Assembly: GCA_023382875.1 (NCBI GenBank)
Contig: JAHDXH010000003.1
Span: forward strand, 7,608 to 71,607
Direction: 5' to 3'
DNA from: Patescibacteria group bacterium
GTDB lineage: Bacteria > Patescibacteriota > Microgenomatia > UBA1400 > PJMF01
DNA: 64,000 nt
Positions 768 through 55,780 of this stretch are shown here, in pieces. Positions within the stretch are counted from its first letter, which is position 1; every line of letters begins with the position of its first letter. The notes beneath the pieces were generated by a model. That model made no database searches and was not told the DNA's origin. It was given only the letters and a program-made list of their open reading frames with translations. Both the position numbers and the translations under genes were made by a program.

Positions 768-846
768 TTGTCACTACTTTTATCCACTGATTTTGACTTT
801 CAATTTAGTCTAAAATGAAACTACTCCATCCGTTGGATGTTGTTTT

Positions 847-3756: not shown

Positions 3757-3844
3757 ATTCTCAATTAATTCCTCAGGCCCACTTGCCTATTCTCTCTTTA
3801 TCGCTTAAGATCGAGTTGCATTATTGTTTAGTTTAAGGAGGGAT

Positions 3845-29967: not shown

Positions 29968-29978
29968 GTTTAATAATT

Positions 29979-30521: not shown

Positions 30522-30538
30522 AATTATTTAGGCAAAAT

Positions 30539-37200: not shown

Positions 37201-40200
37201 ACCCCATCTTCAACGCTGATGGTGTTAGCCGAGATATAGACGATGCCACCACCATCGCCACCAGTTCCACCAAGGATTCCCCAAGCTCCATTGTAGCCAA
37301 CACCACCTCCACCTCCACCTGAGCCCATATGTAATTTACCCAAATTAGCATCACCATAAGCTGTAGTGTTGTTGGCACCGTTGCCACAATTTGCACCAGA
37401 TCTTTGACCAACTGCACCAGTCGATCCATAGGCACCACCGCCACCGCCTTGACATCCAGCAGCTCCACCTCCACCACCACCTTGAACCGTTGGCGTGGGT
37501 GTTCTAGTGTCATTGAGCAATGAAGTTGATTCACCTCTGAAAGCTGGTTCGCCGGCGACGTTATAGCCAGCACCTCCACGATAACCCTTGTCATTCATAT
37601 TAATGTAGCCACCACCTTGAACATTAACTGTGCCTGAAGCCCTAAAAACAAGTAATCCACCAGATGTGCCATTCCAGTCATTGGCTGTTAGTGTTCCACC
37701 ATAAGAAATAGTGACGTTATTGTAATGAGGCACTCTTTGGACAATGATTTTTTGGCCAGTTAGGTTGGCGTTGCCTCCTACGCCATAAGTACCAGTAATG
37801 TTGGTAGTAAATTTAATTCTGGTGGAGTTTACACTTTCAACAGTTAAGAATTCATAAGTACCAACATTGCTATAGTTGGTGGCATCTCCCTGAAGATTGA
37901 TCAGCATCACTTCATCACCATTTTTAATTCCATTGGGAACAGCTGATGTGGTAGCAACATTGGTATTCAAAGAAGAAATAGAGTAGGAAGCACCGTCGGC
38001 ATATGCTCTGCCGCTAGCGATTGCGTCGGTGTTAATGTTTTTGCTTGTAGAAACAGTGATTGAACCATCTTCACCCAAGCCAACAAATGGGCGATTCTTG
38101 GAAGTTTGAATGGTATTACCAACTGTTGATTCAGATTGGAACTTAGTGCTACCGGTGTCAAAGGCACTTTGGGTATTATCGGTATGACCCAATTGATCGG
38201 TATAGTTGATAGTAACACTGGTAACAGTTGGGGTAACTGTATTGGTAGTGGTGCTTAGGATAACTCTATATTGAATGTAATTGGCAGCAGTAGAAGAGAT
38301 TGTTCCATTGGTTGGGCTACTTTCATAACGGTTGGCTGCCAAATCGTCTAGATAAACTGTGGTACTGCCAGAATCAACTTGAGTTAGTCTGAAGTAACGA
38401 ATGGCGTTTCTGGAAGCAGTGCTGATATCAGTTAAGTCCCAATAGAACTTTTGCCAAGTGTTGGCTGGAGCATCTAATGTTTGGTTTAGTTCAACATAGG
38501 AATTTTCTCCCATACTAATCGTCCACTTTTTACCAGATTCAGAATTCTTCATCCAGAAGCTAATGTAGTCATAATTTGATAGATCAACTTCATTGCCAAG
38601 CCCTAAATCTCTTTGAACATAGCCATTTTGAGCGGTGAAAGATACTTTTGTGATATTGCCAACAGTTGATTCATCTTCATCTTCAAAGAAATCAATGTTT
38701 CTAGTGGCGTCTCCCTCAAGCACCATCGTATGGGCAGTGCTACTTCTGTAGTTGAGAGTTAGGTTTTCCAGAGTAGGAGCTGCAGTGACATTGGTAGTGG
38801 AAAGAATGACGCGATACTGAATGTAGTTGTTAACAGTTGATGGAATTTGGTAACCAGCATCAGAAGTAATATACCTTCCACCTTTAATGTTATCTAGATA
38901 ATAGACAACTGCAGGAATATCGTTATTTGTGACTCTTAAATAGCGCACATTATCTCTACTAGCTGCAGCAATGTCTGAGATATCCCAGTAAATCTTTTGC
39001 CAGACGTTGACTTGGTCAATCGTAACCACTTCGCTTTGTTCATCACCTGTAGCTTCGCCAAAGCTGAAGGTCAGTTTATCAGAAGTAACATCTGATCTAA
39101 CCCAGAAGCTAATGTAGTCGTAGCTGGTTAAATTAACTTCATTGCCTGCGCCAAGATCTCTTTCAGCATAGCCACCTTCAGTTGAGGTGGAGAATTTGGC
39201 AATATTGCCGGCTGTAGCTTCATCTTCATCTTCGTAATTGTCAATATTGCGAGTTGTATCGCCTTCAGCCACAGTAGTGTTGGTGCCTGTCCAGCTGGTG
39301 TGGGTATTCATGGTATCGAGGGTAACTTCATTGGTGCCATTAACAACAGGCTTCCAGGCTTCCCAAGTGCCGTCAGTGGCGTCAGTACTATTACCGGTTC
39401 TAGTTTGGACTTGAATTTCTCCAACGTTGCCAAGTGATTCTGTCCAAGAAACCATGTCTAAAACAGCAGCGCTGGTGGCTTGAAGTTCAGAAGAGGTGAA
39501 GACACCAAATGGATGGTAGTTATTAAGTGAGGTGCCGTTGGTATAAGTTGGAGTGGTTGATCCTGCAACTCTGTTGGCGTCAACTCTGATACGACCAACA
39601 CCACCATTGCCACCATTAGATCGACCGCCATTTAATTCGGTATAAGGTGAACCATAGGAACCAACGTTTGTTACGCCGCCACTTCCTCCACTTGCAGTAA
39701 TTGTTCCAGAAACATTGACTACATTACCTGCAAGGTAAATTGCACCACCAGCGCCGCCACCTCCACCACCAGCTGGGATAGTGTCACCTGCACCACCAGC
39801 ACCACCGTCAGTACCATTGTTAACTACAGAGCCAGCTGAGGAGGTAATGGTGTTGGCAGAAATGTAGACGATACCACCGCCATCGCCACCTGTACCGCCA
39901 AGGATGTTCCAAGCACCACCATAACCACCACCACCTCCACCACCACCTGAGCCAAGATTTAACTTAGCTAGATTAGCATCACCATAACTACTACCAAGGT
40001 TTGCATAGTTAGAACAACTTGAACCTGATCTATTTCCAGAAATACCATTGGCTCCATAACCACCACCTCCACCGCCTTGACAAATTAATGTTCCGCCTCC
40101 ACCTCCTTCGGTGGTTGGTGTAGCAGTTTGAGTGTCATTGACTCCGCCAGTTGATTCACCACGATAAGAGAGAACAGCGTTGCTAGCGCTTCCAGCTCCA

Positions 40201-43200
40201 CCACGATAACCTTTGCCGGTCATATTAATGGAGCCGCCACTTTGGACATCGAGGGTACCGGCAACTCTAAAGACAAGCAAACCACCAGAAGTGCCATTCC
40301 AATCATTAGCCGTTAATACGCCGCCTGATTGGACAGTGACGTTGTAATATTGAGGAACGCGTTGAACAACCACTTTTTGACCAGTTAAATTAAGATTAGA
40401 GCCGTAACCATAGCTATTGCTAATCGCAGTTTCAAAATAGAGGATTGAGCCAGAAACCAGGGAAACTTTTGCGAATTCGTAGTTTCCAGTATTGGCATAG
40501 GTGGTATTAGTGTCACCTTGAAGGTTGATCAGCATCACCTCATCACCAGCGACGATACCATTGGGGGTGGCAGAAGTAGTCACTGATGAAGAGTTGATAA
40601 CAGAAACAGAGTAAGTAACTGCATCAGCATAGCTTCTGCCCGTGGCTACGATGTCGGTGTTAAGATTCTTGCTGGTGGAAACAGTGATTGAGCCATCGTG
40701 TCCATCTCCGTTATCAATATATTTTTCGATAGTGACTGATCCGTCTAATCCGCCCGATTCAACAGTGCGATAGGTCTCGTTGTTGAAGCCAAATTCGTTT
40801 TGGACATCTTGGACAATGGTGAAGGGGGTATAAGAAGTCCAGTTACCCTGAACATCCATGTTATCAATCACTTTTTCGTTAACGTTTGTAACAATTGGTT
40901 TCCAAGCTTCCCAAGTGCCATCAGTGGAGTTGGCTGTATTTCCAGATCTAGTCATGATTTGGACTTCGCCGTGAGTGTTGAGATTCTCGCTCCACTCTAT
41001 TAAGTCAAAGGAAATTGTATTAGGTGTCTGAATTTCATCAGATGTGAAAATACCGTAGTCTTCGTAAAGACTTAGACTACCAGCTGTAAAAGTCGGATTT
41101 GTGGTGCCAATTGTTGTGATCGCATCAACTTTAATACGACCAGATCCACCTGCGCCACCGTGAGCAAAGCCACCCAGATCGGCATAAACACCTCCATATG
41201 ATGAGCCACCTGTGGTTCCACCAGATCCTCCAATTGCGCTTACACCACCTTGAAGATCAACAGTTTTTCCTTTCAAGTAAATTGTTCCACCAGCTCCACC
41301 TCCACCACCACCTGAAGAAATTGTTTCGCCTGTTGCACCAGATGCGCCACCTAAACCGACAGATGTGATAACTCCATTAGTTGAAGTAATTTTGTTAGCG
41401 CTGATAAAGACAATACCACCACCATCTCCACCAGTTCCACCCACTTTATCCCATGCGCCAGCATAACCAGCTCCACCACCACCACCTGCTGAGCCTAAAT
41501 AAAGTTTGCTTAAATTCGCATCTCCATATGTAGAGGTTCCTGATGCACCGGCGGTAGGACACCCAGTACCAGCTCTTGTTCCACCAGTGCCCGCAGTTCC
41601 ATATCCACCACCATCGCCTCCATTACAGGCAGCACCACCAGCACCACCTGCTTCTGTTTTAGCTGATGTGTGAAGTTCAGCTCCAGGTCCTGTTGTACTT
41701 TCACCTTGATAGGCAACAGTTGCATTTGTTGGGGCACCAATACCACCTCTATATCCAATGCCTGTTGCTGTAATTTGTCCACCAACCTTAACCAGAACTT
41801 CTCCTGATGCTCTAAAGGCAACTAAGCCAGTTTGATAACCAGCAGTGCCAATGGGAGTGGCTGGTATTGATAAAAAGTCATCCCAATCGCCAGCAGTTAT
41901 TATTCCGCCAAACTCAACTGTGACATCATTGTATTGAGGAATACGTTGGATAATGATGTCCTGACCAGATAAATTAGAGTTGCCACCTACGCCGTAGGTA
42001 GATTGAATACTGGAGGTAAAGGCAATGTTAAGTCCAGAAACGGAGCTAACAGTCAAAAATTCATATGTACCAACGTTGGCATAATTGCTTGCATCACCCT
42101 GCATATTAATTAAAATCACTTCGTCGCCAGCTACGATACCATGTGGAGCGTAGTCAGTTGAAACTGCATTAGTAGCAATACCAGTTACTTTATAAGCAAC
42201 ACCGTCAGCGAAGTTTCTTCCAGCTGCAATAATGTCTGAGTTTATATTTTTGGTAGCTGAAACAGTGGCATCTCCATCCGCACCAGTGCCGGTGTTAGTG
42301 GTTTTAGTGAGTTCTAATGCTGGAGTAGCTGAGGCAGTTGCATTGACAAATGCACCTTCTAAAAATTCTTGTCTGGTGTCTTCAACAACATCTGATGTAG
42401 GGTTAGCTCTACTGAACCAGTCATTAACAGAATCGTAGGTGTAAGTAGAAAGATTTGTATCAACGCCAGTTATTCCTTCAAATTCATCAGCGACACCATC
42501 TTGGAACAGTTCATAAAGCGAGCCATCTGATTGTTGTAGTCGCAAAGAGTTTAGGAAAATATTGGTTGTGTCGCCAAGAGAGATGTTCATTAATTCGTTA
42601 AGAGCAGCAATGATGGAGTTGGTAGTAAAACCAGCATGGAGTTGGGTGGTGCCGGTTTCAGATAGGGCAATTTGGCTGGTTAAGTGAGAATCTTTGAAAG
42701 TTAGGTCTGTACCGTCACCAGAGACATAGGTGTTGGTGTTGTAAAGGTAGATTTGACCACCTTCTAATTTGCCATCGCCAGCGGCATTGAGCGATGTACC
42801 TGTGGCAGCTGGATCTAAATAGTAGGCAGAGTTAGCTAAGTCAACGAAGCGTTGAGAGTGAACATAGCCATCATTATCAATGCGCATTCTAGTTAGACCA
42901 GATCTAGAAGCAGTGAAAATGTCTTGATTGCCTAACTCATTAATTTGAACCAAGGCTTGTCCGGTAACTGCGCCTTCAACGTCGAGTTTTGCTTCTGGAG
43001 TGTTGTCACCAATACCAGTGTTGCCGTTGGCATTAACTCTGAATAACTCGGTAAGACCTCCATTAGTGTTGATGGTGAAGTTTTCAATAGTGTCGTTGTT
43101 GTCGTCATCAAGGTCGATTTTTACATTGAGGTAGGAGTTGATGCCAATACCACTATTAATGAAGTCGATGTTGTTGTAAGGGTTGTAGGTCGTACCAAGT

Positions 43201-46200
43201 AGTTGAGTTAGGTAAACATCGCCATCATTTTCAATTTTGAATTTAGTGACGCCAGAAGCAGAAGCAGCAAAGATATCTTGATTTTCAGTTTGGTTAATAA
43301 TTACGGCAGCTTTGCCTCTAGTTTCTGATCCGGCTAGAGAGATTTTGGCTGAGTTGGTAGCAATGTTACCAAGGTTAATTTCATAGCTTGTTTGAGTAGG
43401 TGAAAGGGCACCGCTATTAAGCTGCCAATAGCTGGCGCCGCCTGTCATGCTGACCCAAGTTGTACCGTTATAGTAGTAAACGCCATCATTGGTAGTGTTG
43501 TAATAGAGAGCGCCATCGCCCATAGCAGTTGGATCGCCAGCGAAGTTGGCTAGTTGTAGTTGACCGCCTAGTTTTAATGATCCAGATAGAGTGGCGTTGC
43601 CACCATAATCAATAGCAAAGCGAGTAATACCAGATGATGATGCAGTGAAGATATCTTGATTTTCAGTTTGGTTAATGATGACAGCAGCTTTGCCGCGATC
43701 CAAAGCACCAGCTAAGGAAACTTTAGCTGAGGCGGTAGAAATACTACCAATATTGACGTCAGCGCCAGTTGAAAAAGGTGAAATGGTGCCATTATTGAGT
43801 TGCCAGTAAGCGTTACTAGCCAGACCAATATCGGTCCAGTTACCACCAGAGAATTTATATTGTAAAGTGCCAGCGTTGTCTCTGAAACCGTAGCCACCTG
43901 TGCCATCAGTGTCACCCCAATTAAGGTAGGAGTTGGCAGCTAAATTAATGTTACCATCAACTTCTAAGATCCCTTCCACAAATAAATCATTATCGTCATT
44001 GGTAATATCACCAGCGTTGGTGTTGGAAATTGAGTTGTAGTTGGCACCAGTCAAACCACCAATGTTGAAGACATTATTGTTGGCAAAATTGATTTGACCG
44101 CCAAAAGAATCAAATTGGAGGTCGCCAGAAACATTGCTGATGGTGTGACCAACCCCACCCACAGCAACGATGTTGCCACTTGAGTTGACTTGGAAAAGGT
44201 CGCCAGCTCCAACAGAGAGAAGGGAAGTTGGACTAGAATCGCCAATACCAACATTGCCGTTATTGGCAATGACAAATCTAGTTGTGCCAGAGGCAGAGGC
44301 AGTAAAGATGTCTTGATTTTCAGTTTGGTTAACGATCAATGCAGACATACCTCTGGTTAAGGAGCTAGCAATGGAAACTTTGGCAGAGCTGGTAGCAGTT
44401 GCACCAAAGTTGACGTCGGTGGTTAAGGAGAATGGACTAAGTACACCATCGTTCAACTGCCAGTAACCACCACTACCTCCTGAACTAAAATCAAGCCAAG
44501 AGCCGCTGCTGTTTTTGAATTGTAAAATACCGGCGTTGTCTCTAATACCATAACCTGATGAACCTAAAACTGTGCCCCAGTTAATATAGTTGCCAGTAGC
44601 CAAACCAATATCGCCGGTCACACCTAGGTTGCCATCATAATCAATGGTAAATTTGGTTGCACCAGAGGCAGAGGCAGTAAAGATGTCTTGATTTTCAGTT
44701 TGGTTAACGATCAAAGCAGACATACCACGATTTAAAGCACCGGAGATAGAAACTTTAGCTGAAGTGGTGGCAGTGTCACCGATGTTTAAACCTAGGCCAA
44801 GATAACTTGGGGAAAGCATACCATCGGTTAGTTGCCAAAAGTCACCGGCAGTGTTGGAACCCCAAATCAAGTTGCCAGAGCCATCATTCATTAAGACTGT
44901 GCCAGTGGCTCCTGCAGCATCTGGAAGGGTATAGATAATATCGGTACTAAGCAGGGATGGAGCTCTGAATCCAGTGTAGTTAGTTCCATTTGAAGCACTT
45001 TCTCTTAATCTTAAAGAGGCTTGATCGCCAACGATGATATTACTACTCGTGAGCAGTTCGCCGATATTTCCTGTTGATGCTAATGAGCCAACTGCAAAAG
45101 ATCCATCAACTCTAAGGTCATCACTGAACCTTAAATCGGCGGTGTCATCGTAGAAATATCTATTATTGGTACCAATATATAATCGGTCATTAATCTCAAT
45201 GCCAAGACCAGCGGTAGAGAATAAAACTGGATTATTGCCGTCTAAATCAATCGAAAGATCGGTGTTGATACCACCATTTCCACCCCCAAAAACTAAGAAA
45301 TCATCGGTTGAGTTAGAAATGTACTCAGAATTTGCTAGGGTAAGATTGCCATTGTTAGCGATAGTGAACTTAGCAACACCAGATGCTGAGGCAGCAAAGA
45401 TTGGTTGGTTTTCAGTTTGGTTGATGATAGCTGCAGCTTTACCTCTAGTTAATGAGCCTGCTAGAGAGACTTTGGCTGAATCAGTAGAAGTTCCGCCAAT
45501 ATTGACGTCAGCAGTAATATAACGAGGAGTTAGGGTGCCATTAAAGAATTCCCAGTAAGTGTTGCCAGCTACGCCAAAATCAGTCCAAGTGCCACTACTG
45601 TTTTTGAATTGGAGAGTACCAGCGTTGTCTCTAACGCCATAGCCAGAAGTTCCATCTACATCGCCCCAGTTAATATAACCACTAGCATCCAAACCAATAT
45701 TTCCGGCAACATCTAATCTGTGATCTGGAGTAGCATCACCCAGTCCTACAAATCCATTAGAACCTTCAATAAATAAGGCAGCTACATCAGTGTCACTTTC
45801 AACTCTAAAGTCAACGTTACCACCTTGTTCATTAAAAACAGCTGCACCAGTATTGCTGAGCCAAATACCGGCACTACTAGTGGAGTTACCACCGATGGCC
45901 AGATCATCACTCCAGTATTGGGTGGGGTGGATGAGGTTGCCTAGTTCTGACCAGAAGGCGTTGCCAGCACTGAAGTTGTAAACATTGTTAATAGCATCAA
46001 CAATTCCTTGTGGAAGGGATGGGTTTAATTGTGTGTCGACTAAACTTAGTGGCAAGTCTGTAACTCGAGCATCACTAAACAAAATGTCAGAGGTAGCCTC
46101 CAAGGACAAAGTACCACCAGAAATAGTAAAGGTTCCAGACACTGATTTTAAAGTTGGATTATTTTCACCAAGAGTAACATTGCCACCAGCGTCCATAACT

Positions 46201-47297
46201 AAAATAGTGTTAGCGGTAGCTGACTGGGTGGAATTGATCGGGAAGCCTTGGACAGTTTCTGAATTAACGGCAAAAGGAACAGTTCTGATTGGTTGGCGAG
46301 GAGTAAGAGTTTCACTATCAACGATCACTTCAAGCCACAAAGCTGAGTTCTCGGTGAAGACAGCATCATCAATCTCGATGCCACAGTCATCGCCAATGCC
46401 AACATTAAAGATACCATCTTGATCTGGAGTCACACTACAAGAGCCAGTTTGGTACTTACAATCAGTTGTCCCATCGCAAGAGCCTTCTGTGCCGCCAGTT
46501 AATTGGTCCCAAATTTTGAATTCCATTGGGGTAGGAATGGTAACAGGATTTTGAGCAGTGTCAGTCAAGCGACCTTGGAATGATAAAACGCGGTTAGCTC
46601 TAGTTGGAGTAGAGGGGTAAGCAAAAGAAACAGGTGTTTCTTTGACCAACTGGTTATAACCAAGAAAACCAAGTCCAATGAAGAACAAGATCATTAAACC
46701 AAGGTTTAAATATGGCAAAATTAAGTTGGTGGTAGAAGCAAAACTCTTTTTACTGTCGGGTTTTACTTGTGCTGCGAATTGACTGACTAACTTGGTGTCA
46801 GTAATTTTAGCGCTGCTATCTTGCTTATCTTGCTTGGCTAATTGGTCGATTTTGTTGGAATTTTTATTTTTGAAGATATTGAATAAGCCCCTTTTGGTTT
46901 CTTGAGCTTTGTTTGGGTCAACTTTGGTATTTAAAAGCGAATTAATACTGGTTTGATCCATCCAGGAGATATCTTGATCAATCAAACCTTGGTCTTCACA
47001 CCATAAAGCGAATTGAGTGATTGAGGCAATTTTTCTAGTGACGCTCGAATCTTTCAAACCCTTGCCATGTTGAGCTAAGACAAAATCTTTGAGTGATTGG
47101 CGAGTGAATAAATCTTCAAGTTCTTCAATTTCCATGAACTTGTAAAACTGACGAATGTCAGAACGGTAGTTTCTGATGGTAGCGCTAGAACAGTGCTGAC
47201 TGCTTAGGGCCGTCAAAAAATTAATCAAACTTGCTTCAATTTGAGGTGAAGTGAAGTTGCTTTCAACGCTGGTATTAATTTGACTTTGGGCAGTCAT
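31290..47297 (-). CDS. Giant (5335 aa) repeat-rich cell-surface protein with N-terminal cytoplasmic tyrosine-recombinase SAM-like (core-binding-like) domain and single TM helix
   Basis: Uninterrupted 16-kb ORF. Residues 20-105 (FLTALSSQHCSSATIRNYRSDIRQFYKFM...ITQFALWCEDQGL) resemble the phage-integrase/XerD N-terminal domain. A TM helix lies at about aa 192-213, followed by about 5100 aa of Gly/Thr/Ser/Asn-rich beta-type repeats. Confidence 0.75.
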   Translation of the reverse strand: MTAQSQINTSVESNFTSPQIEASLINFLTALSSQHCSSATIRNYRSDIRQFYKFMEIEELEDLFTRQSLKDFVLAQHGKGLKDSSVTRKIASITQFALWCEDQGLIDQDISWMDQTSINSLLNTKVDPNKAQETKRGLFNIFKNKNSNKIDQLAKQDKQDSSAKITDTKLVSQFAAQVKPDSKKSFASTTNLILPYLNLGLMILFFIGLGFLGYNQLVKETPVSFAYPSTPTRANRVLSFQGRLTDTAQNPVTIPTPMEFKIWDQLTGGTEGSCDGTTDCKYQTGSCSVTPDQDGIFNVGIGDDCGIEIDDAVFTENSALWLEVIVDSETLTPRQPIRTVPFAVNSETVQGFPINSTQSATANTILVMDAGGNVTLGENNPTLKSVSGTFTISGGTLSLEATSDILFSDARVTDLPLSLVDTQLNPSLPQGIVDAINNVYNFSAGNAFWSELGNLIHPTQYWSDDLAIGGNSTSSAGIWLSNTGAAVFNEQGGNVDFRVESDTDVAALFIEGSNGFVGLGDATPDHRLDVAGNIGLDASGYINWGDVDGTSGYGVRDNAGTLQFKNSSGTWTDFGVAGNTYWEFFNGTLTPRYITADVNIGGTSTDSAKVSLAGSLTRGKAAAIINQTENQPIFAASASGVAKFTIANNGNLTLANSEYISNSTDDFLVFGGGNGGINTDLSIDLDGNNPVLFSTAGLGIEINDRLYIGTNNRYFYDDTADLRFSDDLRVDGSFAVGSLASTGNIGELLTSSNIIVGDQASLRLRESASNGTNYTGFRAPSLLSTDIIYTLPDAAGATGTVLMNDGSGNLIWGSNTAGDFWQLTDGMLSPSYLGLGLNIGDTATTSAKVSISGALNRGMSALIVNQTENQDIFTASASGATKFTIDYDGNLGVTGDIGLATGNYINWGTVLGSSGYGIRDNAGILQFKNSSGSWLDFSSGGSGGYWQLNDGVLSPFSLTTDVNFGATATSSAKVSIASSLTRGMSALIVNQTENQDIFTASASGTTRFVIANNGNVGIGDSSPTSLLSVGAGDLFQVNSSGNIVAVGGVGHTISNVSGDLQFDSFGGQINFANNNVFNIGGLTGANYNSISNTNAGDITNDDNDLFVEGILEVDGNINLAANSYLNWGDTDGTGGYGFRDNAGTLQYKFSGGNWTDIGLASNAYWQLNNGTISPFSTGADVNIGSISTASAKVSLAGALDRGKAAVIINQTENQDIFTASSSGITRFAIDYGGNATLSGSLKLGGQLQLANFAGDPTAMGDGALYYNTTNDGVYYYNGTTWVSMTGGASYWQLNSGALSPTQTSYEINLGNIATNSAKISLAGSETRGKAAVIINQTENQDIFAASASGVTKFKIENDGDVYLTQLLGTTYNPYNNIDFINSGIGINSYLNVKIDLDDDNNDTIENFTINTNGGLTELFRVNANGNTGIGDNTPEAKLDVEGAVTGQALVQINELGNQDIFTASRSGLTRMRIDNDGYVHSQRFVDLANSAYYLDPAATGTSLNAAGDGKLEGGQIYLYNTNTYVSGDGTDLTFKDSHLTSQIALSETGTTQLHAGFTTNSIIAALNELMNISLGDTTNIFLNSLRLQQSDGSLYELFQDGVADEFEGITGVDTNLSTYTYDSVNDWFSRANPTSDVVEDTRQEFLEGAFVNATASATPALELTKTTNTGTGADGDATVSATKNINSDIIAAGRNFADGVAYKVTGIATNAVSTDYAPHGIVAGDEVILINMQGDASNYANVGTYEFLTVSSVSGLNIAFTSSIQSTYGVGGNSNLSGQDIIIQRIPQYNDVTVEFGGIITAGDWDDFLSIPATPIGTAGYQTGLVAFRASGEVLVKVGGQITATGIGYRGGIGAPTNATVAYQGESTTGPGAELHTSAKTEAGGAGGAACNGGDGGGYGTAGTGGTRAGTGCPTAGASGTSTYGDANLSKLYLGSAGGGGGAGYAGAWDKVGGTGGDGGGIVFISANKITSTNGVITSVGLGGASGATGETISSGGGGGGAGGTIYLKGKTVDLQGGVSAIGGSGGTTGGSSYGGVYADLGGFAHGGAGGSGRIKVDAITTIGTTNPTFTAGSLSLYEDYGIFTSDEIQTPNTISFDLIEWSENLNTHGEVQIMTRSGNTANSTDGTWEAWKPIVTNVNEKVIDNMDVQGNWTSYTPFTIVQDVQNEFGFNNETYRTVESGGLDGSVTIEKYIDNGDGHDGSITVSTSKNLNTDIVATGRSYADAVTYSVSVINSSSVTTSATPNGIVAGDEVMLINLQGDTNTTYANTGNYEFAKVSLVSGSILYFETAISNSYGYGSNLNLTGQKVVVQRVPQYYNVTVQSGGVLTANDWNGTSGGLLVFRVAGTLDVQSGGSINMTGKGYRGGAGSASNAVLSYRGESTGGVNDTQTATPTTEGGGGGTLICQGGGGGGYGANGISGNRSGSSCSNYANLGSSYGDANLAKLNLGSGGGGGGGGYGGAWNILGGTGGDGGGIVYISANTITSSAGSVVNNGTDGGAGGAGDTIPAGGGGGGAGGAIYLAGNVVNVSGTITASGGSGGVTNVGSYGSPYTELNGGRSNGGNGGVGRIRVDANRVAGSTTPTYTNGTSLNNYHPFGVFTSSELQATSAAVLDMVSWTESLGNVGEIQVQTRTGNSTDATDGTWEAWKPVVNGTNEVTLDTMNTHTSWTGTNTTVAEGDTTRNIDNYEDEDEATAGNIAKFSTSTEGGYAERDLGAGNEVNLTSYDYISFWVRSDVTSDKLTFSFGEATGDEQSEVVTIDQVNVWQKIYWDISDIAAASRDNVRYLRVTNNDIPAVVYYLDNIKGGRYITSDAGYQIPSTVNNYIQYRVILSTTNVTAAPTLENLTLNYRSSTAHTMVLEGDATRNIDFFEDEDESTVGNITKVSFTAQNGYVQRDLGLGNEVDLSNYDYISFWMKNSESGKKWTISMGENSYVELNQTLDAPANTWQKFYWDLTDISTASRNAIRYFRLTQVDSGSTTVYLDDLAANRYESSPTNGTISSTAANYIQYRVILSTTTNTVTPTVTSVTINYTDQLGHTDNTQSAFDTGSTKFQSESTVGNTIQTSKNRPFVGLGEDGSITVSTSKNINTDAIASGRAYADGASYSISSLNTNVATTSAVPNGIKNGDEVMLINLQGDATNYSNVGTYEFLTVESVNSTRIKFTTNITGTYGVGGNANLTGQKIIVQRVPHYNNVTISYGGTLTANDWNGTSGGLLVFRASGTVNVQGGGYINMNDKGYRGGAGYNVAGEPAFRGESTSLLNDTRTPTPTVQGGGGGGAAGCQGGGGGAYGSTGAVGQRSGANCGNGANNTTAYGDANLGKLHMGSGGGGGGVGYNGAWGILGGTGGDGGGIVYISANTISVEDGVSLDGTLSSNGGGGGAGGTGDTIPAGGGGGGAGGTIYLKADVVSIPVNTTAAAGAGGVTNVGTYGAGWTDLNGGLASGGNGSVGRIKIDANSITGTTSPTYVAGSNSGYYYPYSVFTSNEINTAGASAYDSLTWLANLGTGGMVQFMTRSGSTPDSTDGTWQEWRPLYASNEAVLQTSNTHGDWVGYTPLSKIDDTRAEFDATSVDKFRVSSDTTPSLKLDRYIDDGDGSDGAITLSGSKNINVETIATGRVTYADGIAYKVDASTITGSTLTTTNTPNGIVAGDEVLLINMQGAAGDYADVGNYEFLEVASVVGSALTFKSAVVNSYDGTTPANQKVIIQRIPQYTNVTIQSGGTLTASGWDGLTTTPSGSSGYFTGIVAFRATGTVDVQLNGQINVNYLGYRGGAGYNVAAQPAFRAESTAQLNDTRTATPATEGGGGGGGGYCQGGGGGAYGTAGAVGQRSGTSCANNANNPSAYGDANLNKINLGSGGGGGGVGYNGAWTVLGGAGGNGGGIVFISANAVEVDTHPVSTHGKILANGNGGGAGGTGDTIPAGGGGGGAGGAIYIQANYTDLSGDVTASGGTGGQTNSGSYGAPWTDNGTYSHGGNGGSGRVRVDTNELTTGTATTPTYTAGITNRPLHRYGIYTSDELSTNSAADFKDIEWFENINTSYSDVQVQTRSGNTADSTTGTWEAWRPVTGGVNTVSIENMNTHTNWTGTNVTVADGDVTRNNNFYEDEDEATAGNATKFTSSTVNGYAARDLGAGNEVNLSNYNYVSFWIRADRDNTTFKLGMGEAAATEQEETVIIDAADTWQKVYWDLSDMTAAARDSIRYLRITYLDDTTGSVNFYLDNITGAEVLTEPTGSDITSSAGNYVQYRLIFSTTDTTSTLAAPAVYSVKVNYVTPSAVFYSQEGDVTRNVDGYEDEDEPTATNVTRVVASSTESDGNFVEAIIPSTDLTNYDYLSFWIRTSASATEIPMRIGFGELESDEQQMDFVVETPFQWQKVFFDISDIPAANKNAVTKLRVTNLAPYINDIYIDDFTANRYITNSGYQPNTTANNYVQYRAILTSTDTSSFPSISQVSIAYSGESNVVSEDFEANVLPRRANLISWADLGTGSIDYWASRDNGVTWTPVTMTQQATESGDLKIFSGFADLTSQPEGTTMRWKARINGNAILKSMAMRWESGGGADLAEWYPTTDKTISAAEVVSADTTSTQSGYIVRTAKAYDPAVIGVISTAPGLQIGEKAENTKRVALAGRVPVKIASDSAAILPGDFITSSNVPGRAMKAQKTGYTIGKAVEAWTPGSGKDWVMMFVNLGTYLDGKDIGGVDNASLEEIFGEETQQAINVVNASGSSEIANSPESTISGQINEATNSGEIASNSAQLNPNTATASATLVKESLTSRLKKLADERLDAFLGWTKTEATISGEVLEGTTTNSNFDSITKYQSDLFEAKNKFVTYGETVKNTVGATTINAYGSLNAAGATIYGKLIAGSVEVYGKFTAVSGQFLDLFSNIVRTNNLQTNMISPIADDGSIHVRLGENKDASSSAKPALVIENSAGSSVTSIDKDGNIITLGTIISKENKTSTVTAEVIYTKDASISGDLDASSARIQELEARIAQVEQIKAETAEIVNATVSGTLFAENIDRFSEKVAAAIEEPSLLAKLSGSANQNTVESVESYFASRSAFLADIDTSSPSRLALSDLTLDEDALVIDADAIYVDQYLDVNGSAFVAEKLGIGQSLVLSDSMFVTAGSIDFAPTGVEKPVLALQPSGKGVLSLMGNLFTLDDTGLAQLTGNLEVSGDVKVGGTLLANLMKLNDYNNPFQVQLATKSGDVLGETVQESRFEIVNELGVPVATISAQGKAEFASGLGIGSEELQVASDSGTIESEKTSGTATIKANSNEIVIKSKIVTGKSLIYLTPLGSTNNQVLYVKEIATDNPETPEVESSFKVGFDYPVNNDLKFNWWIVN
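35000..42300 (-). repeat. Four about 500-700-aa tandem modules inside the giant gene, each containing a PNGIVAGDEV..LIN[LM]QGD block, a poly-Gly block (GGGGGGAGG[TA]IYL) and an EW.ENL......Q..TRSGNT..STDGTWEAW block. Modules 2 and 4 are each followed by two Y/FEDEDE-containing beta-sandwich-like domains.
   Basis: Poly-Gly codon blocks (ccaccnccacc on the plus strand) occur at about 35520, 37120, 39760 and 41290. The ttcatcttcatcttc (EDEDE) motif occurs at about 34425, 34985, 38665 and 39215. Confidence 0.7.
42850..45520 (-). repeat. Six tandem about 120-240-aa protein repeats (SAKVS[LI]AG..R[GM].A..I[IV]NQTENQDIF) interleaved with four GYINWGDVDGTSGYG[VIF]RDNAGTLQFK units inside the giant gene
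   Basis: The nucleotide motif gatrtcttgattttcagtttggttaa recurs near 43290, 43660, 44330, 44690 and 45400 on the plus strand. Confidence 0.7.
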
Positions 47298-47365: not shown

Positions 47366-47388
47366 TGTCTAACCAGATTGGTTAGACA
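47366..47388. promoter_or_regulatory. Perfect 10-3-10 palindrome (TGTCTAACCA gat TGGTTAGACA) 70-90 nt upstream of the giant-gene start codon
   Basis: Inverted repeat read directly from the sequence. It lies in the divergent intergenic region between the giant gene (minus) and a putative wHTH gene (plus). Confidence 0.3.
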
Positions 47389-47892
47389 CTTTTTTGCAGC
47401 TAAATTAATCTTAGCCTCTCTTGAGGTGGTGGGTCAATGGATCATTTGCGAACATAAGGAGAAATTAATCCGGAAAAAATGATGCAAAAATTAAGTTATC
47501 AACAATGCTGGAATTTCTTTTTTTTAGATCAAAAAAACTAGTAGTCAAAAAAGACTGAAGTAGGTCGACTATTTATCTTTGGCTTTGTGGGAGCTTTCAA
47601 AAAAAATAAAAGCAAGTCACTAATTATCAACGGCATTTCCTAGTGTGAATGTGTTTAAAAAAGTGGTAGTTTGTGAAGTGATAAAAAACAAAACTAGAGT
47701 GAATAAGTGAAAACCAGATGTATATATTTTTGTTATTAACAAATTGAATAGCGAAAAACATTAATTAGATACTTTTGGGTCACCTGTTTGTGAATAACTT
47801 TATTAAAGTGTGGGGATTAAGGTATATATATTATTTGCAATCTGTGCAATTTTCGGTTAATTTAGTCAATAAACTATAGGTATTTTTGGTAA

Positions 47893-48660
47893 ATGAAAAC
47901 AACAACGAAAAAAATATTGCTTTGGTTGTATTCTGCTGACCCAGCTGAAAATCGTTTAGTCGAAATTGACAATTTGCGCTTGATTTTGCCTGAGTTAAAA
48001 AAGAGTGGCTATAGATCACTCTTAAATTTACTTAAAAACCAACAGTATATTTTTATTGAGTCTATAGTGAGTGACTCAAACACAGCCTTGCCCAGGCAAC
48101 TTAATGTGGTTGGCTTAACAAGCCATGGTAGAGAAGCCTTAAAAGGTCAATTTCCGGTTTTAAAAACTTTAAACGAACCATTTGACGGAGCTTGGACTCT
48201 GATTACCTTTCTAGAGGCTCCTAGTAATGACAAACAATTTAGATACTTAAGACAGTACCTGCTGAATTTTCATTGCGGCCAATTGGCGAGAGGTGCATAT
48301 CTTTACCCAGGATCATTGCCAAATGAGGTTGTTAATACGCTTAATAAGTTGTACGTCGGCAAGGTCTTGGTTACGGGTTTGAAAAGTTGGAATTTTGGCG
48401 ATGAAAGATCAACCATCAGTGAAGTTTTTCATTTGTCTGACCTAAAAAGTGGCTACTCTGGTATTAGCAAAGAAATATATTTAATGCTAAGGAAGTCTGA
48501 TAGACAAAAAAGCATTGAAAATAGAGATAAAAGTGACATTCATTTGGTTTTTGATAGGCTGATGGAATTTCTGACAAACGATTTGGGCTTGCTTCAGTAT
48601 TACTCTCCAGATTCCAAATCTGGCCTTGATCTGTTGTTTCAATTGCAAGACTTATTTTGA
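47893..48660 (+). CDS. Hypothetical protein, possible winged-helix regulator, divergent from giant gene
   Basis: N-terminal ILLWLYSADPAENRLVEIDNLRLILPELKKSGYRSLLNLL resembles a wHTH domain. No other motif recognised. Confidence 0.3.
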   Translation: MKTTTKKILLWLYSADPAENRLVEIDNLRLILPELKKSGYRSLLNLLKNQQYIFIESIVSDSNTALPRQLNVVGLTSHGREALKGQFPVLKTLNEPFDGAWTLITFLEAPSNDKQFRYLRQYLLNFHCGQLARGAYLYPGSLPNEVVNTLNKLYVGKVLVTGLKSWNFGDERSTISEVFHLSDLKSGYSGISKEIYLMLRKSDRQKSIENRDKSDIHLVFDRLMEFLTNDLGLLQYYSPDSKSGLDLLFQLQDLF

Positions 48661-49414: not shown

Positions 49415-51487
49415 TCAATTGAATAACTCGTCGTATAAATCTAGCACTGGTTCCATAACGATTGCGATGTCTTGAGTTTTATTAGTAGCGTCTACCTGGT
49501 AGAAACTCATGGTATTGGCGATTTCTTGCCAGACATAGCCTGTCATTATGACTTCTAAGTGGTAAATTCCTTTGTCTGCGTAAACTTTGAATTGACCAGA
49601 TTTACTGGTGGTCAAGACTGTAACCAACTGGTTAGTATTTGGATCAATAATTCTGACGACGGCATTTTCGAGTGGTTTCTTGTCTTTATCGACCACAATG
49701 CCCGTGATAATAGGCCTTTTGGTTAGCCAAATTAGCTTTTGTAAAACTAATACCAGATAAAAAAGCAGTACAATGCCATTCCAAATTGTAGGGAAGACGG
49801 TAAAAAGGATGGCTGAGATTATAAATAAAGGAATAGTTAGATGCTTGATGATTCTGGTAAATCCAGACAAAAGTACCCTCAACTTGGTTTTGAATGCCGT
49901 TTTTTGTGATTTAACCTTTGGGTCAACGGGGATTAAAAAGAGCTGCTGTTCGTTCTCAGAAGTAACATTAAAGACTTCCCCCAGATAGTAGTCTTTAAAC
50001 TGCATATACGGTGGCCTTTTCTTAGTGGAAGGGAAAGTGTAGTCCTGATGCGACACGACAATCCTATAAAGTCCTGATGCCAATTTAATTCCTCTATAAA
50101 CACCATCTACGTCAGTAACTACAGTTTCTGAGATTTGATTATCTGAATTTTCTGAATATATAGTTAGCAAGGCAAAAGAAACTGGTTGAAAAGTCTCTGA
50201 GTTGAAAACAATTCCTTGTGGTTTGCCAGCAGGCAATAAGCCAAGAGACTGGAGTAATTTTAGGAATAACTGTAGAGATAAACTGCCTCCAAACTGTGCA
50301 CCTACGGCCAAGGCGGTGGCGACTGGTAGAGCAGTGGCGACTACAGCGGCAGAAATCGGTGCTAGTTCTTGAATAGTTTTAATAACTCCCTCAGGAATCA
50401 GCGAAATCAAAACCTTGATTGGTTCGGGTAATCTTTCGCCAATTTCTTGCCAGATTTCGTATATAACCTCTCGAGGTGGAGTATAGGGTATTTCGATGAC
50501 TGGAGGGGTTGGCGAAGCCTCAGTGCTAACGGTTGGTTCAGGGCTTAACCCTGGAGTTGCCGAGGGGGTAGGGCTAATGGTTGGAGATGGGGAAGGTGAA
50601 GCTGGAGGAACCACAATGACTAATTCCTTGACTACAAATTGAACATTATTAAGAACACTAACCAAGCCAGCTGGATCAGTAATAGTAAAGTCCAGGGTAA
50701 TAATGTCGCCTCGATTAAAAATACCCAGTTGCAATGACCAGTTGCCATTGGCATCGATGGTCGTAGTGTAGATCTGAACAGGGTCATTGGGCGAATAAAC
50801 AGTCAAAACGACAGTGCTATTCGGTTCACCTGTCGCTGTAATAAGTGGCTCATTATTTTCAAGTTCAATTGGGCTTGAGGGAATAGTACTCAGGTCTTGA
50901 GCTGAAATGTTGGTGTTAACCTCACCAATGCTGTTAATAATGAAAGTTGGGGCCAAAGTATCAATAATAAAGCTCCATGTCGCCGACTCAGAGTAGTTGT
51001 TGTTGATGTCGTAAACCCTGATTTTCCAGCTATATGTGCCATCACTAATGCCATTCTTCAGTTGAAGGGAGTATTCGCCGTTTAAAGTGTCGTGAGTATA
51101 GATATAGTTACCGTTTTCTTGATTACCAGTTGGTAAGTTGTCATAAAGTAAGTTTCCATTGAGCCAGAGTTGGTATTTGGCTATGCCTCGATCATCGCTT
51201 GATTCCTCCCAGCGAAAAGTCGGAGTACTTGTGGTGACATAGCTATTATTCTCAGGAGAAATGAGGATTGGAGTGGTGGGATTGGTGTTATCTACGACTT
51301 TTAAAGTGACATGAGCGCTTTCGGTGGCAATTGACTGAGCGGCGAAAGTTTGGCTGGGATACGTTTCTTGTCCACCAAAGAAGTTGGGGAATAAGCTGAG
51401 TACAAATATACTTGAGAAAACAAAAACAACGAGTAGTTTTTTTACTCTAGAAATACTGGTAAAAAATTGTTGTTTTGGCACATACAT
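49415..51487 (-). CDS. Secreted/membrane multi-domain surface protein: signal peptide, Ig/Fn3-like domains, Pro/Ser/Thr linker, TM helices, C-terminal carboxypeptidase-regulatory-like (transthyretin-fold) domain
   Basis: N-terminal hydrophobic signal. A PPASPSPSPTISPTPSATPGLSPEPT linker. Two hydrophobic stretches (aa about 380-420 and about 555-600). The C-terminus (VVDKDKKPLENAVVRIIDPNTNQLV...SGQFKV) is typical of the CarboxypepD_reg-like fold. Last gene of the surface operon. Confidence 0.45.
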   Translation of the reverse strand: MYVPKQQFFTSISRVKKLLVVFVFSSIFVLSLFPNFFGGQETYPSQTFAAQSIATESAHVTLKVVDNTNPTTPILISPENNSYVTTSTPTFRWEESSDDRGIAKYQLWLNGNLLYDNLPTGNQENGNYIYTHDTLNGEYSLQLKNGISDGTYSWKIRVYDINNNYSESATWSFIIDTLAPTFIINSIGEVNTNISAQDLSTIPSSPIELENNEPLITATGEPNSTVVLTVYSPNDPVQIYTTTIDANGNWSLQLGIFNRGDIITLDFTITDPAGLVSVLNNVQFVVKELVIVVPPASPSPSPTISPTPSATPGLSPEPTVSTEASPTPPVIEIPYTPPREVIYEIWQEIGERLPEPIKVLISLIPEGVIKTIQELAPISAAVVATALPVATALAVGAQFGGSLSLQLFLKLLQSLGLLPAGKPQGIVFNSETFQPVSFALLTIYSENSDNQISETVVTDVDGVYRGIKLASGLYRIVVSHQDYTFPSTKKRPPYMQFKDYYLGEVFNVTSENEQQLFLIPVDPKVKSQKTAFKTKLRVLLSGFTRIIKHLTIPLFIISAILFTVFPTIWNGIVLLFYLVLVLQKLIWLTKRPIITGIVVDKDKKPLENAVVRIIDPNTNQLVTVLTTSKSGQFKVYADKGIYHLEVIMTGYVWQEIANTMSFYQVDATNKTQDIAIVMEPVLDLYDELFN

Positions 51488-51502
51488 TAACTACTTTTGC
51501 CA

Positions 51503-52576
51503 TCATTCATCAAACTTACTCAATCTGTCTTGCTCGAGTTTGGCAATTTTTTCTTCAAGCATCTGCATGCGTTGCTTTTCGGCGTCCTTTTTATGAAGTA
51601 AGTGTCGGCGCACAGCAATGAAGATGACGACTAAGGTGAGGATAACGACTAATCCAGCGATAACAAGAGTAATTGGGAGAAGCCAGAATGTCGTATTTAC
51701 GATTGCAACTTGTCCGCCAGTGCCGTAGGACATGATTAATTTGGCTTTATAAAAACCGCTACCCCAAACAGCATCCCATTGACCAGTGAAAGTTCTCGAG
51801 ACCATAGGGAAGACATTTTTTGATTCAATGGCAATGGTATCAACCTTCATTCCTAGAAGATTATAGATTTCGATGCTAATCTCCGGTTTGATATGAATAT
51901 CAGATTGGTTATCAACCATGAATGAGAAAGGCACTGGTCCATATTCTGTAAAACGAGGCATGGTGAAGTCACGGACAAAAGCTTCTTCGTTGATTGGTCC
52001 ATCAACAACCACATAGAGTAGAGTGCCAACGCGTTGAGAGATGATTGAGGAAGCGCTATCTTGGAATTTTTCGCCATTTAGGCCAACAGGTTTGTGGGTA
52101 ATCATGGCGTAGTGGCCACCTGGAAGCGCATCGGCTGGAACATCAATGATAACGTTGATGATGCCTGTTTGTCTTGGTTGGAGAACTTGGAAATCTGGGG
52201 CGAGAACGAGCCAGTTTTTAAGACTCCAGCGATAATCGACTTCTTCAGTTACTGCTACTGGGGTTTCACCATCATCACCAATCACAAAGTCATCAATAGC
52301 AGTATTAATGGTGAAGGCCTTATTGGAATTGTTACGAACTTTGACTGCCGTTTGGAGTTTTTTTCCTGGAGTACCCTTAAGACTTAAGTCATCACCTAAG
52401 CGTGGTGGCATGGCTGTTAGAGTAATGGATTCGTCAGTGACAGGTGCTTGGGTATTAGTATTTTGGGCAGAATCAGTATTTGGTTGTTCTTGAGCTGCCG
52501 CTTGAGCGAAAATTGTCGGCGCAAAAATACCAGTAAGAATGGCAAATAAACTTAGGGCAGTAATTAGTTTTCTCAT
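51503..52576 (-). CDS. DUF916-like cell-surface protein with C-terminal TM anchor (CscA-like)
   Basis: Signal peptide, then ITLTAMPPRLGDDLSLKGTPGKKLQTAVKVRNNSNKAFTINTAIDDFVIGDDGE. This resembles the DUF916 N-terminal pattern (F.V.P..P.NQ....YFDL.V.PG..Q.L.V.L.N.S.K). A C-terminal TM helix and a charged cytoplasmic tail follow. Confidence 0.45.
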   Translation of the reverse strand: MRKLITALSLFAILTGIFAPTIFAQAAAQEQPNTDSAQNTNTQAPVTDESITLTAMPPRLGDDLSLKGTPGKKLQTAVKVRNNSNKAFTINTAIDDFVIGDDGETPVAVTEEVDYRWSLKNWLVLAPDFQVLQPRQTGIINVIIDVPADALPGGHYAMITHKPVGLNGEKFQDSASSIISQRVGTLLYVVVDGPINEEAFVRDFTMPRFTEYGPVPFSFMVDNQSDIHIKPEISIEIYNLLGMKVDTIAIESKNVFPMVSRTFTGQWDAVWGSGFYKAKLIMSYGTGGQVAIVNTTFWLLPITLVIAGLVVILTLVVIFIAVRRHLLHKKDAEKQRMQMLEEKIAKLEQDRLSKFDE

Positions 52577-52581
52577 GTTAT

Positions 52582-54036
52582 TTAGAATGTGGCAGTGGCT
52601 GTATAGGTGACATAGTTTTCGTAGTCACCAGCAGCTGTGGTCACATTGGGCAGCACTCTATAACAGACATTAATATTTTCGTTGTCAGCGACAGTGGTAG
52701 AGGAGAAAATCATTTGTGCTGCTTGTGAGTCTTCAGCATCGGCAAATTGGCGTGCACAGTAGGTGCCGCCGGCACAGTTGCCTGTAGTTGTGTTGTAGTT
52801 AAAAGGAATGGTGTTGGCATCGCCATTGTGAATGGAGAAGGCAAAGCCTTTGGTAGAAAGAGAATCCCAATTATCAAAAGCAGTGTGACTCATGACCGCG
52901 TCATCACCAGCAGAGTCTCGAATACAGCTTGTTCCAGTGTTATCACCGGTACAAGTAGCTCCGTTGAGTCCAAGCTGATCATTTTCGATGGCTGTCACCG
53001 CATAGCCGTTTACCGCGTTGGTGGTAACGGTTAATGTTTGCGCAGCATCGTTAAAAGCACCGATGGAAACTTCACCAAATGGCACGGCGGCGGCAGAAGT
53101 AGTCACGTCGGTGGTAATACCGCAGGTGCTGGTGCCTGAGTTGACGCCGGCAATAGTGAAGGAAATGGTTGGTGGAACATAGGCGGAAATTTTAACGGCT
53201 TCAATGACGCCAACGGCGACTGAAGTGTAGTCGTCAACATTAAATCCTGAATCAAGCTGTTGGATGACAATGTTTTGAGTATCGGCCGTACCTGTCACGT
53301 GACCTGATTCTGGGGCAGGGTTGATGATGTTGCTGATAATAATTGCACCTTGGCTTGTTCCGTTAAATTGAGTGCCAACACCACCTGTGCCTGAATAGGC
53401 ACATTCATATGAATGGTACTGAGTGCTACCAATAGTGATTGCTGAGGCGGTAGCTGTTCCAGCAACAAAGTCATAGCCAGAGAGGTCTCCTGGACAGGTA
53501 ACTGTTGGAGCAGAAGAACCAAAGTCATAAAGGTCTGAGTCTGGAATTCCATCGGCAGCATCAGTATCGCTAGCAAGAGAAGGAACTAAGATGCGGAAAC
53601 GGCCATTGTTGATAGCGGTGGCAGTGGTAAAGCGAACAGTAAGACTGGCTGATTGGGTAGAGATGACCTCGTCATCTAAATCAGCATCCCCAGCTGCTAA
53701 AGTACTGCCAATGGTAAAGGCGCTAGTTGGGTTGGTGGTGCTAACTGTATAAACGCCCAGTGAATCGGCATTGCCAATGGCAACACCGTCTCCATTTTGA
53801 AGTTGAGCAGTAGAGAGTGATGGCTGGCCTGAGGAAGTGTTAATTGTAACTTGAGAAGTTCCGGCAACGTTATTGCCATCTAGGGTGCCACGAAAAGAAA
53901 GTCTGGGATTAGACAAAGTTACTGAGACACTGGTAAGACTAGCCGATTTGACGCTATTCAATAAACTAGCACCCAAAAAAATTGCGGGTACCAAAAAAAC
54001 CGCCAAAATCCGCTTATTGCTGAACTTGTTACTCAT
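52582..54036 (-). CDS. Secreted Gly/Thr/Ser-rich surface protein with WxL-like (W to Y) C-terminal motif
   Basis: Signal peptide. Ends with TAAGDYENYVTYTATATF, closely paralleling the C-terminus of the 55028 protein and the WxL-domain terminal G.Y....TWTL pattern. Confidence 0.4.
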   Translation of the reverse strand: MSNKFSNKRILAVFLVPAIFLGASLLNSVKSASLTSVSVTLSNPRLSFRGTLDGNNVAGTSQVTINTSSGQPSLSTAQLQNGDGVAIGNADSLGVYTVSTTNPTSAFTIGSTLAAGDADLDDEVISTQSASLTVRFTTATAINNGRFRILVPSLASDTDAADGIPDSDLYDFGSSAPTVTCPGDLSGYDFVAGTATASAITIGSTQYHSYECAYSGTGGVGTQFNGTSQGAIIISNIINPAPESGHVTGTADTQNIVIQQLDSGFNVDDYTSVAVGVIEAVKISAYVPPTISFTIAGVNSGTSTCGITTDVTTSAAAVPFGEVSIGAFNDAAQTLTVTTNAVNGYAVTAIENDQLGLNGATCTGDNTGTSCIRDSAGDDAVMSHTAFDNWDSLSTKGFAFSIHNGDANTIPFNYNTTTGNCAGGTYCARQFADAEDSQAAQMIFSSTTVADNENINVCYRVLPNVTTAAGDYENYVTYTATATF

Positions 54037-55015
54037 TTTTTTCCACCTTTTTCACGCCTTTGGTTTTATCCAATAGGACTCTATATAAAGAATACAGTAG
54101 GTAACCAATTAATGGCAATAGTAATATTGAAAAAGGTAGAGCAAGAATTGTCCTAGACATGGTAACTTTTTCTGCGCCTACTTGAGAGTTTTTATTTAGT
54201 TCAATTTTTATTTTGTATAAGCCGATCAGGAAGGGTTTTTTATATCTAAATTCATTAGAAACAAATTCTTTCTCTCTTAACTCTCTAGAACTTCCGGAAA
54301 GAATCATGTCTGGGTGGATTTCATACTTTGCTAGCTCTTTATTTTGCCAGTTATAAAGAGTAGCACTGCCACTAGCTTGGGTGGCATTTTTGCCAATGTT
54401 TTCTGCCATAGCCCCAAACTTTATGCCCATAAAACTATCAATGGTGGGTAAGGAAGAAATATTTTTTACCCTCAACTCGCCTCGATCAGAATTGTTTCTG
54501 GTAACTAAGACAATTAAGTTGCTGCCGACGGTACCAGTGATCTTAGCCTGGGAGTTGGGGACTTTGGGGTCGATTTGGTTTTTGAAACTGAAGAAAATAG
54601 TCATAGCGTATTCTTCTTCATTGGCATTTTTGGGAATTTCAATGTTGACGGGAACAATCATTTTTTGACGAGGTTCGAGTACAAAATTACTACCAAAGTT
54701 AATTTGTCCATCGTCCAATTTTAAGTAAGGAAAAGTGCCGCTAGATTTGACTACTGGTTGGCCGGTTTTATCATCCGCTTCGAAATCAAGTAGGGTTGGC
54801 GTGACTTCTAAGGCGTTTTCGCCTAAATTCTCGAGTTTAATATCATATTTTCCCACCTCTCCAGGCTTAATGGAAAAGTAATTGACTGGTGGTGAAACCG
54901 ATAGGTCGATGGGAGAGGTAGTAACTGCATTGGCTCCTGAAACAAAAGGTCTAAGCAAAAATAATAGAGCCAAAGTCAGGGCAAAAATAAAGTTTTTTTT
55001 ATGATTAGGTTTCAT
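54029..55015 (-). CDS. DUF916-like cell-surface protein with C-terminal TM anchor (second CscA-like)
   Basis: Signal peptide, then IDLSVSPPVNYFSIKPGEVGKYDIKLENLGENALEVTP (DUF916-like pattern). A C-terminal TM helix and a basic tail follow. Confidence 0.45.
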   Translation of the reverse strand: MKPNHKKNFIFALTLALLFLLRPFVSGANAVTTSPIDLSVSPPVNYFSIKPGEVGKYDIKLENLGENALEVTPTLLDFEADDKTGQPVVKSSGTFPYLKLDDGQINFGSNFVLEPRQKMIVPVNIEIPKNANEEEYAMTIFFSFKNQIDPKVPNSQAKITGTVGSNLIVLVTRNNSDRGELRVKNISSLPTIDSFMGIKFGAMAENIGKNATQASGSATLYNWQNKELAKYEIHPDMILSGSSRELREKEFVSNEFRYKKPFLIGLYKIKIELNKNSQVGAEKVTMSRTILALPFSILLLPLIGYLLYSLYRVLLDKTKGVKKVEKNE

Positions 55016-55027
55016 TTTATTTACGCC

Positions 55028-55780
55028 TTAGTATCCAGGTACAGCAATATAAACTACGTTGGTTTCATAGTCTCCAGCAGCCTGTGATCCGCTGATTCCA
55101 GCTTTATAGGTAACGGTAGCCGTCCTATCCTTGGCAATGTTGTTAGAACTCATTACCACCTGCATTTGATCGGAGGCGCTGTCATCAGCAAAGGGTCTGA
55201 AGTAGGTGCTGTTGATAAAATCAGCAGGAACGTCATCGCCAGACATGTTGTAGCCAAAGCCAGGGATAGAGGTGTTGTTCCAGACCCCAGCGGTGGAAAT
55301 AGTACAAGTGCCACTATTGCAGGCAGTGTCGGCAATATCGGGCGTGCCGTTAATGTGTCTTAAAGGATGTTTTTCATAAGCATAAACGTAATAGCCACCA
55401 GCTCCTTTAGTATTGACAATTAAATCGTGGGTAGCAGTGGCGTGAGAGCCGAGGGCCAATTCTCCAAGCTCGACAGAAACATCGGTAATCCTGAAGGAGA
55501 AAGTATCAATAGTGTAAATATATTGGAAACCGCCGCCAATGACGTAGTTGGAGCTTCCATATTGGCCATACGGACCATTAGCAATCTGGCCGACTGTGTC
55601 GGTGACATTGTAACTAGCACTGCTTTTCTCTCCTGAGGTGACGTTGAAGTTGCCAAAAGTCACGACATAAGACTCTGACTCCAATCTTTCAGAGTAGACA
55701 AGGCCACTAGCGAGAAGCAAAAAACAACCAGCGCTTAGAGAAGCGATGGCGATTTTAGCTGATTTGTTTCTACTCATCAT
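55028..55780 (-). CDS. Secreted surface protein with WxL-like (W to Y) C-terminal motif
   Basis: Signal peptide. Ends with QAAGDYETNVVYIAVPGY, shared with the 52582 protein. Confidence 0.4.
   Translation of the reverse strand: MMSRNKSAKIAIASLSAGCFLLLASGLVYSERLESESYVVTFGNFNVTSGEKSSASYNVTDTVGQIANGPYGQYGSSNYVIGGGFQYIYTIDTFSFRITDVSVELGELALGSHATATHDLIVNTKGAGGYYVYAYEKHPLRHINGTPDIADTACNSGTCTISTAGVWNNTSIPGFGYNMSGDDVPADFINSTYFRPFADDSASDQMQVVMSSNNIAKDRTATVTYKAGISGSQAAGDYETNVVYIAVPGY

Follow-up and report, generated by a model that had tools for sequence, protein, structure and literature searches.

A recombinase-type core-binding domain at the N-terminus of a giant repeat protein of Microgenomatia-type Patescibacteria

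Organization of the giant gene and its product

The window, i.e., the whole stretch of 64,000 nucleotides that was analyzed, contains a giant gene whose product consists of a core-binding (CB) domain, a linker, one transmembrane (TM) helix, a conserved stem, a repeat-rich variable shaft and a conserved C-terminal module, in this order. The features of this gene are as follows.

31290..47297, minus strand: giant gene, a single 5335-residue open reading frame with an ATG start (ORF list and translation)
46992..47246, minus strand: core-binding (SAM-like) four-helix domain, residues 18–102 (Pfam match at residues 26–101)
46731..46961, minus strand: flexible, predicted cytoplasmic linker, residues 113–189, rich in K/S/Q/D (AlphaFold2 and family statistics)
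46641..46730, minus strand: single TM helix, residues 190–219, with conserved LPYLNL...GLG..GY..F (hydropathy, AlphaFold2 and positive-inside statistics)
46518..46640, minus strand: invariant juxtamembrane segment of the ectodomain, residues 220–260, ..AYPSTPTR.NRVLSFQGRLTD.AQNP..
34098..45500, minus strand: hypervariable, internally repeated shaft, residues ~600–4400 (BLAST and repeat analysis)
31293..32750, minus strand: conserved C-terminal module, the last ~480 residues (BLAST against relatives)

Positions 46968–47297 of the minus strand encode residues 1–110, and the peptide singled out in an earlier sequence-only reading was found at residues 25–105. BLAST comparison with 150 relatives revealed conserved N- and C-terminal ends and a variable middle as the family-wide layout. 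Next to no relatives aligned over residues 1600–4400. The repeat unit of the shaft was ~240 amino acid residues, with identities between copies of up to 65%. The ectodomain is rich in G, T, S, A and N, and includes AgmC_N-like repeats (NCBIfam, E = 4e-51 and 4e-25; under the family cut-off). Internal repeats cover 3497 of the 5335 residues, and only one strongly hydrophobic segment was found (residues 192–215; helix 190–219 in the AlphaFold2 model). Thus, the earlier description of one TM helix followed by extracellular repeats is correct. Pfam searches of residues 251–5335 matched neither a catalytic Phage_integrase domain nor any other Pfam domain. The C-terminal module, for which no Pfam family was matched, aligned end to end with the C-termini of 70 relatives at identities of 25–60%. 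In the juxtamembrane segment, A226, P228, R236, L238, Q241, G242, R243, L244 and P251 were invariant in the family alignment, and this segment and the TM helix were found together in 133 of 150 relatives.

The linker had pLDDT values below 50 and no secondary structure in the model. Family linkers ranged from 11 to 253 residues (median 71), with a mean net charge of +5. A signal peptide was absent in 150 of 151 relatives. Over the 15 residues preceding the TM helix, the K + R content was 3.05 vs. 1.10 after it, and was higher on the N-terminal side in 107 of 133 relatives. Judged by the positive-inside rule, and with no signal peptide present, the protein is most likely oriented N-in, which would place the CB domain in the cytoplasm. 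The cytoplasmic N-terminus proposed previously fits these statistics, as a location predicted from sequence. The gene product is probably a giant surface fiber of a Microgenomatia-type CPR bacterium, anchored in the membrane with type II (N-in) topology.

Identity, conservation and distribution of the core-binding domain

Residues 26–101 matched positions 3–80 of the 83 positions of Pfam PF02899 (Phage_int_SAM_1; E = 4.8e-10, 40 bits vs. a gathering score of 22.3). NCBIfam matches to XerC (E = 3e-12) and XerD (E = 1.3e-11) spanned only profile positions ~3–89 of ~295, i.e., the N-terminal domain alone. The AlphaFold2 model contained four helices at residues 18–33, 38–55, 66–78 and 83–102, with pLDDT values of 94–98. 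The resemblance to the N-terminal domain of tyrosine recombinases is far above chance. The XerC/XerD-type four-helix domain recognized in the sequence-only reading is therefore confirmed, including by the profile search proposed there, in which the matches to integrase N-terminal domains were significant. The CB domain is recombinase-derived and has lost its catalytic partner; as no catalytic domain follows it, recombination is impossible. The "integrase" label on these giant proteins in databases, such as the NCBI name "site-specific integrase" of a 5205-residue family member, is a mislabel.

Between the CB codons and those of the ortholog in GCA_021462985.1 there were 22 synonymous differences and 1 non-synonymous difference (dN/dS 0.008). 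The CB domain is under extreme purifying selection, whereas constraint on the linker is relaxed (dN/dS 0.115). On average, the commonest residue at a position had a frequency of 0.59 in helix 2 and 0.51 in helix 4, and a lower one elsewhere in the domain (0.36 in helix 1, 0.34 in helix 3 and 0.25 in the loop). The invariant residues T40, N43, Y44, S46, D47, I48, Q50, R88, K89 and W99 are located on helices 2 and 4, which correspond to the DNA-contacting helices B and D in the structures of Cre, XerD and lambda Int. The mean net charge of 182 CB copies was +5.0.

The N-terminal module was identified in at least 147 cluster representatives, and 147 of the 151 best representatives possessed the CB domain. 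Full-length members were mostly 2,000–7,700 amino acid residues long, and 50 of the 147 relatives contained two tandem CB copies. A pattern scan of species-representative genomes confirmed 310 loci, nearly all of Microgenomatia-type Patescibacteria. Hundreds of related species share this conserved fusion of a CB domain to a giant fiber. No description of such a CB-domain giant fiber was found in the literature, for which the earlier remark on a non-standard architecture is accurate; within this large family (147/151; 310 loci), however, the architecture is the rule.

A mis-called start, or an assembly or annotation error joining an integrase fragment to a surface-protein gene, is exceedingly improbable. 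The ATG at 47297 lacks an obvious Shine-Dalgarno sequence, and fragments of such proteins are labeled "site-specific integrase, partial" in databases, both of which would suit an error. However, the same in-frame fusion recurs in the independent representatives and confirmed loci, no stop codon or frameshift lies between the CB domain and the TM helix, and a close relative from a separate assembly has the identical arrangement. Moreover, orthologs share the start MTAQ/MTAH/MTAL, and selection on the CB domain acts in frame. The start is thus upstream of the CB domain rather than downstream of it, and an artifact was rejected.

The upstream element and neighboring genes

The region around the giant gene contains the following features.

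47366..47388, minus strand: conserved upstream element, sense strand TGTCTAACCA-ATC-TGGTTAGACA
47408..47437, minus strand: promoter-like site TTGACC-N18-TAAGAT, directly upstream of the element (consensus match only)
47893..48660, plus strand: divergent PaaX-like gene, 255 residues, central Cas2-like domain, candidate dedicated regulator
49415..56450, minus strand: Pam-type chaperone pilus operon, same strand as the giant gene and upstream of it
29320..31000, plus strand: genes for three type IV pilins (Pfam PF07963, N_methyl motif), located 3' of the giant gene in convergent orientation

The element is a perfect palindrome with 10-bp arms, 70–91 nt before the ATG of the giant gene, and occurs once in the window. 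In 50 of 74 loci, the strict pattern GTCTAA[TC]N2-3[ATC]CTGG was found just 5' of the giant gene; elsewhere it occurred only 3 times in 1.86 Mb. Most related loci have a comparable TTGAC-N17-TAnACT upstream of the element. The most constant neighbor was a divergent PaaX-like gene ~500–600 bp upstream (72/81 loci). The match of the PaaX-like protein to PF20803 (PaaX_M; E = 7.5e-5, 23.2 bits) was under the GA of 24; 2 of 10 homologs passed the GA and two more were just under it. The element co-occurs with the PaaX-like gene and is missing where that gene is missing. Therefore, it may be an operator of the PaaX-like protein, not a CB site. The subfamily without the element also differs in its helix B and D sequences.

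The Pam-type operon encodes a 226-residue membrane protein, a 250-residue PamT-like pilin, two membrane-anchored chaperones of 328 and 357 residues, a 484-residue pilin-like protein and a 690-residue Ig-domain membrane protein. The 250-residue protein matched CPR_Pam_pilin_C (E = 5e-8) and PamT (E = 2e-6) of NCBIfam, both under the curated cut-offs. The AlphaFold2 model of the 357-residue protein (pLDDT 81) matched WxLIP and FimC/CfaA/Caf1M chaperones. Both chaperones possess a signal peptide and a C-terminal TM helix, as described for PamC/D (Troman et al., 2026, bioRxiv 10.64898/2026.03.03.709456). Synteny with the giant gene was found in 36–55 of 81 loci, and in about 20 of 81 the operon was not within 8 kb. 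Pam systems were found by Troman et al. [quoted passage not shown] Similarly, in a Microgenomatia-type genome, the giant gene adjoins genes for a PamT-like pilin and for PapD/FimC-like chaperones with a TM helix at the C-terminus. The likeness is one of gene context: in that report, the "tail fibre-like protein" is left without a description, and no integrase or recombinase domain is mentioned.

Type IV pilin genes were downstream in 7 of 11 related loci in which the 3' end of the giant gene was visible, and were also present in the close relative. In contrast, only 19 of 81 loci had comEA within 8 kb, where it always accompanied the housekeeping LeuRS gene. The suggested link to comEA/comEC is thus unsupported. 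The specifically linked neighbors are the PaaX-like gene, the Pam-type operon and the type IV pilin genes.

Possible functions of the core-binding domain

Different from tyrosine recombinases such as XerC/XerD, lambda Int, Cre and IntI (PF02899, PROSITE CB domain), the giant protein has a CB domain that lacks a catalytic domain, is attached to a membrane helix and an ectodomain of 5100 residues, can occur as two tandem copies and has a near-invariant helix B, which is target-site-dependent in recombinases. Our best guess (probability about 0.38) is that the CB domain is a DNA-binding head, tethered at the membrane, through which the fiber is linked to the chromosome or to gene control. We infer DNA binding, and any signaling role, from several lines of evidence: conservation concentrated on helices B and D, a mean charge of +5 for CB copies and linkers alike, the contrast in dN/dS between domain and linker, the N-in topology, the highly specific element at the gene's own promoter and the differing helices B and D of the subfamily without it. 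Tandem copies are as expected for avidity on a polymer. Against this reading, the CB domain of the window is the most acidic of the family (net –3, with helices B and D remaining basic), the element may belong to the PaaX-like protein, and DNA binding by isolated recombinase CB domains is generally weak when the catalytic domain is absent. Moreover, recognition helices of recombinases vary with their target sites, whereas helix B is near-invariant although the proteins are only 30–40% identical overall; a conserved protein partner would fit this equally well.

The main rival, which is possible but doubtful, is a repurposed adaptor that no longer binds DNA and docks a conserved cytoplasmic protein at the fiber anchor. 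Coupling to DNA and a repurposed protein-interaction domain are the two options that the sequence-only reading had offered, and both are retained here as candidates. Candidate partners of an adaptor are an export or assembly factor, or the PaaX-like regulator, whose sequestration at the membrane would depend on the state of the fiber. The near-invariant polar residues T40, N43, S46, D47 and Q50 of helix B suggest one conserved ligand, and the constancy of the PaaX-like gene and the acidity of the window's CB domain also suit an adaptor. Sequestration of a regulator at the membrane is known from Mlc-PtsG, and the DNA-binding fold on the cytoplasmic end of bitopic RodZ binds protein instead. RodZ, which also has a periplasmic domain, is oriented N-in with its fold on a linker before the TM helix, as is predicted for the giant protein, and serves as the model for an adaptor. 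RodZ, however, is small and its HTH binds MreB; for the giant protein, nothing here points to a cytoskeletal partner. Against an adaptor, one subfamily has retained the CB domain although no PaaX-like gene is adjacent, and family-wide positive charge and tandem duplication suit a polyanionic ligand better. Improbable is an export or topology device, in which CB domain, linker and TM helix would form a long signal-anchor leader that sets the N-in orientation and targets or paces secretion of the 5100-residue passenger, with the CB domain as a stable cytoplasmic plug; the leader might be cleaved at the invariant juxtamembrane A-Y/F-P site. Extended leaders such as ESPR and YSIRK are frequent on giant secreted proteins of other bacteria, the CB domain, TM helix and ..AYPSTPTR..LSFQGRLTD segment always occur together, and there is no other signal peptide. 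However, a plug needs neither a dN/dS of 0.008 nor invariant polar surface residues on two DNA-contact helices, the tandem copies seen in a third of the family are left unexplained, and proline is common at –3 of the putative cleavage site, against the signal peptidase I rule.

The DNA-binding head would resemble the membrane-bound one-component transcription factors ToxR, CadC and TcpP in having an N-terminal cytoplasmic DNA-binding-type domain, a flexible linker, an N-in TM helix and an environment-facing outside part. Their fold is an OmpR-type winged helix and their outside part a small sensor domain, whereas those of the giant protein are a recombinase CB domain and a giant repeat fiber. 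The SPbeta-phage repressors MrpR/SroF and the yeast kinetochore protein Ndc10 are also recombinase-derived and non-catalytic, and DNA binding by the giant protein would be a further likeness. They are soluble, however, and retain the whole recombinase fold (CB and degenerate catalytic domains), whereas the giant protein possesses a membrane-tethered CB domain only.

A cytoplasmic CB head that has kept its affinity for nucleic acid (most likely for duplex DNA) would use helices B and D, the pair that recombinases place in the major groove. Hanging on a flexible, mostly basic tether of about 70–250 residues in a cell a few hundred nanometers wide, the head could let the membrane anchor of the fiber reach the chromosome. 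One possibility is a membrane-bound regulator in the style of ToxR, with DNA binding that responds to clustering, load or cleavage of the fiber; another is a physical tether that holds the chromosome or the locus at the attachment site. Either way, the outcome would be a one-protein connection between a host-contact structure and the chromosome.

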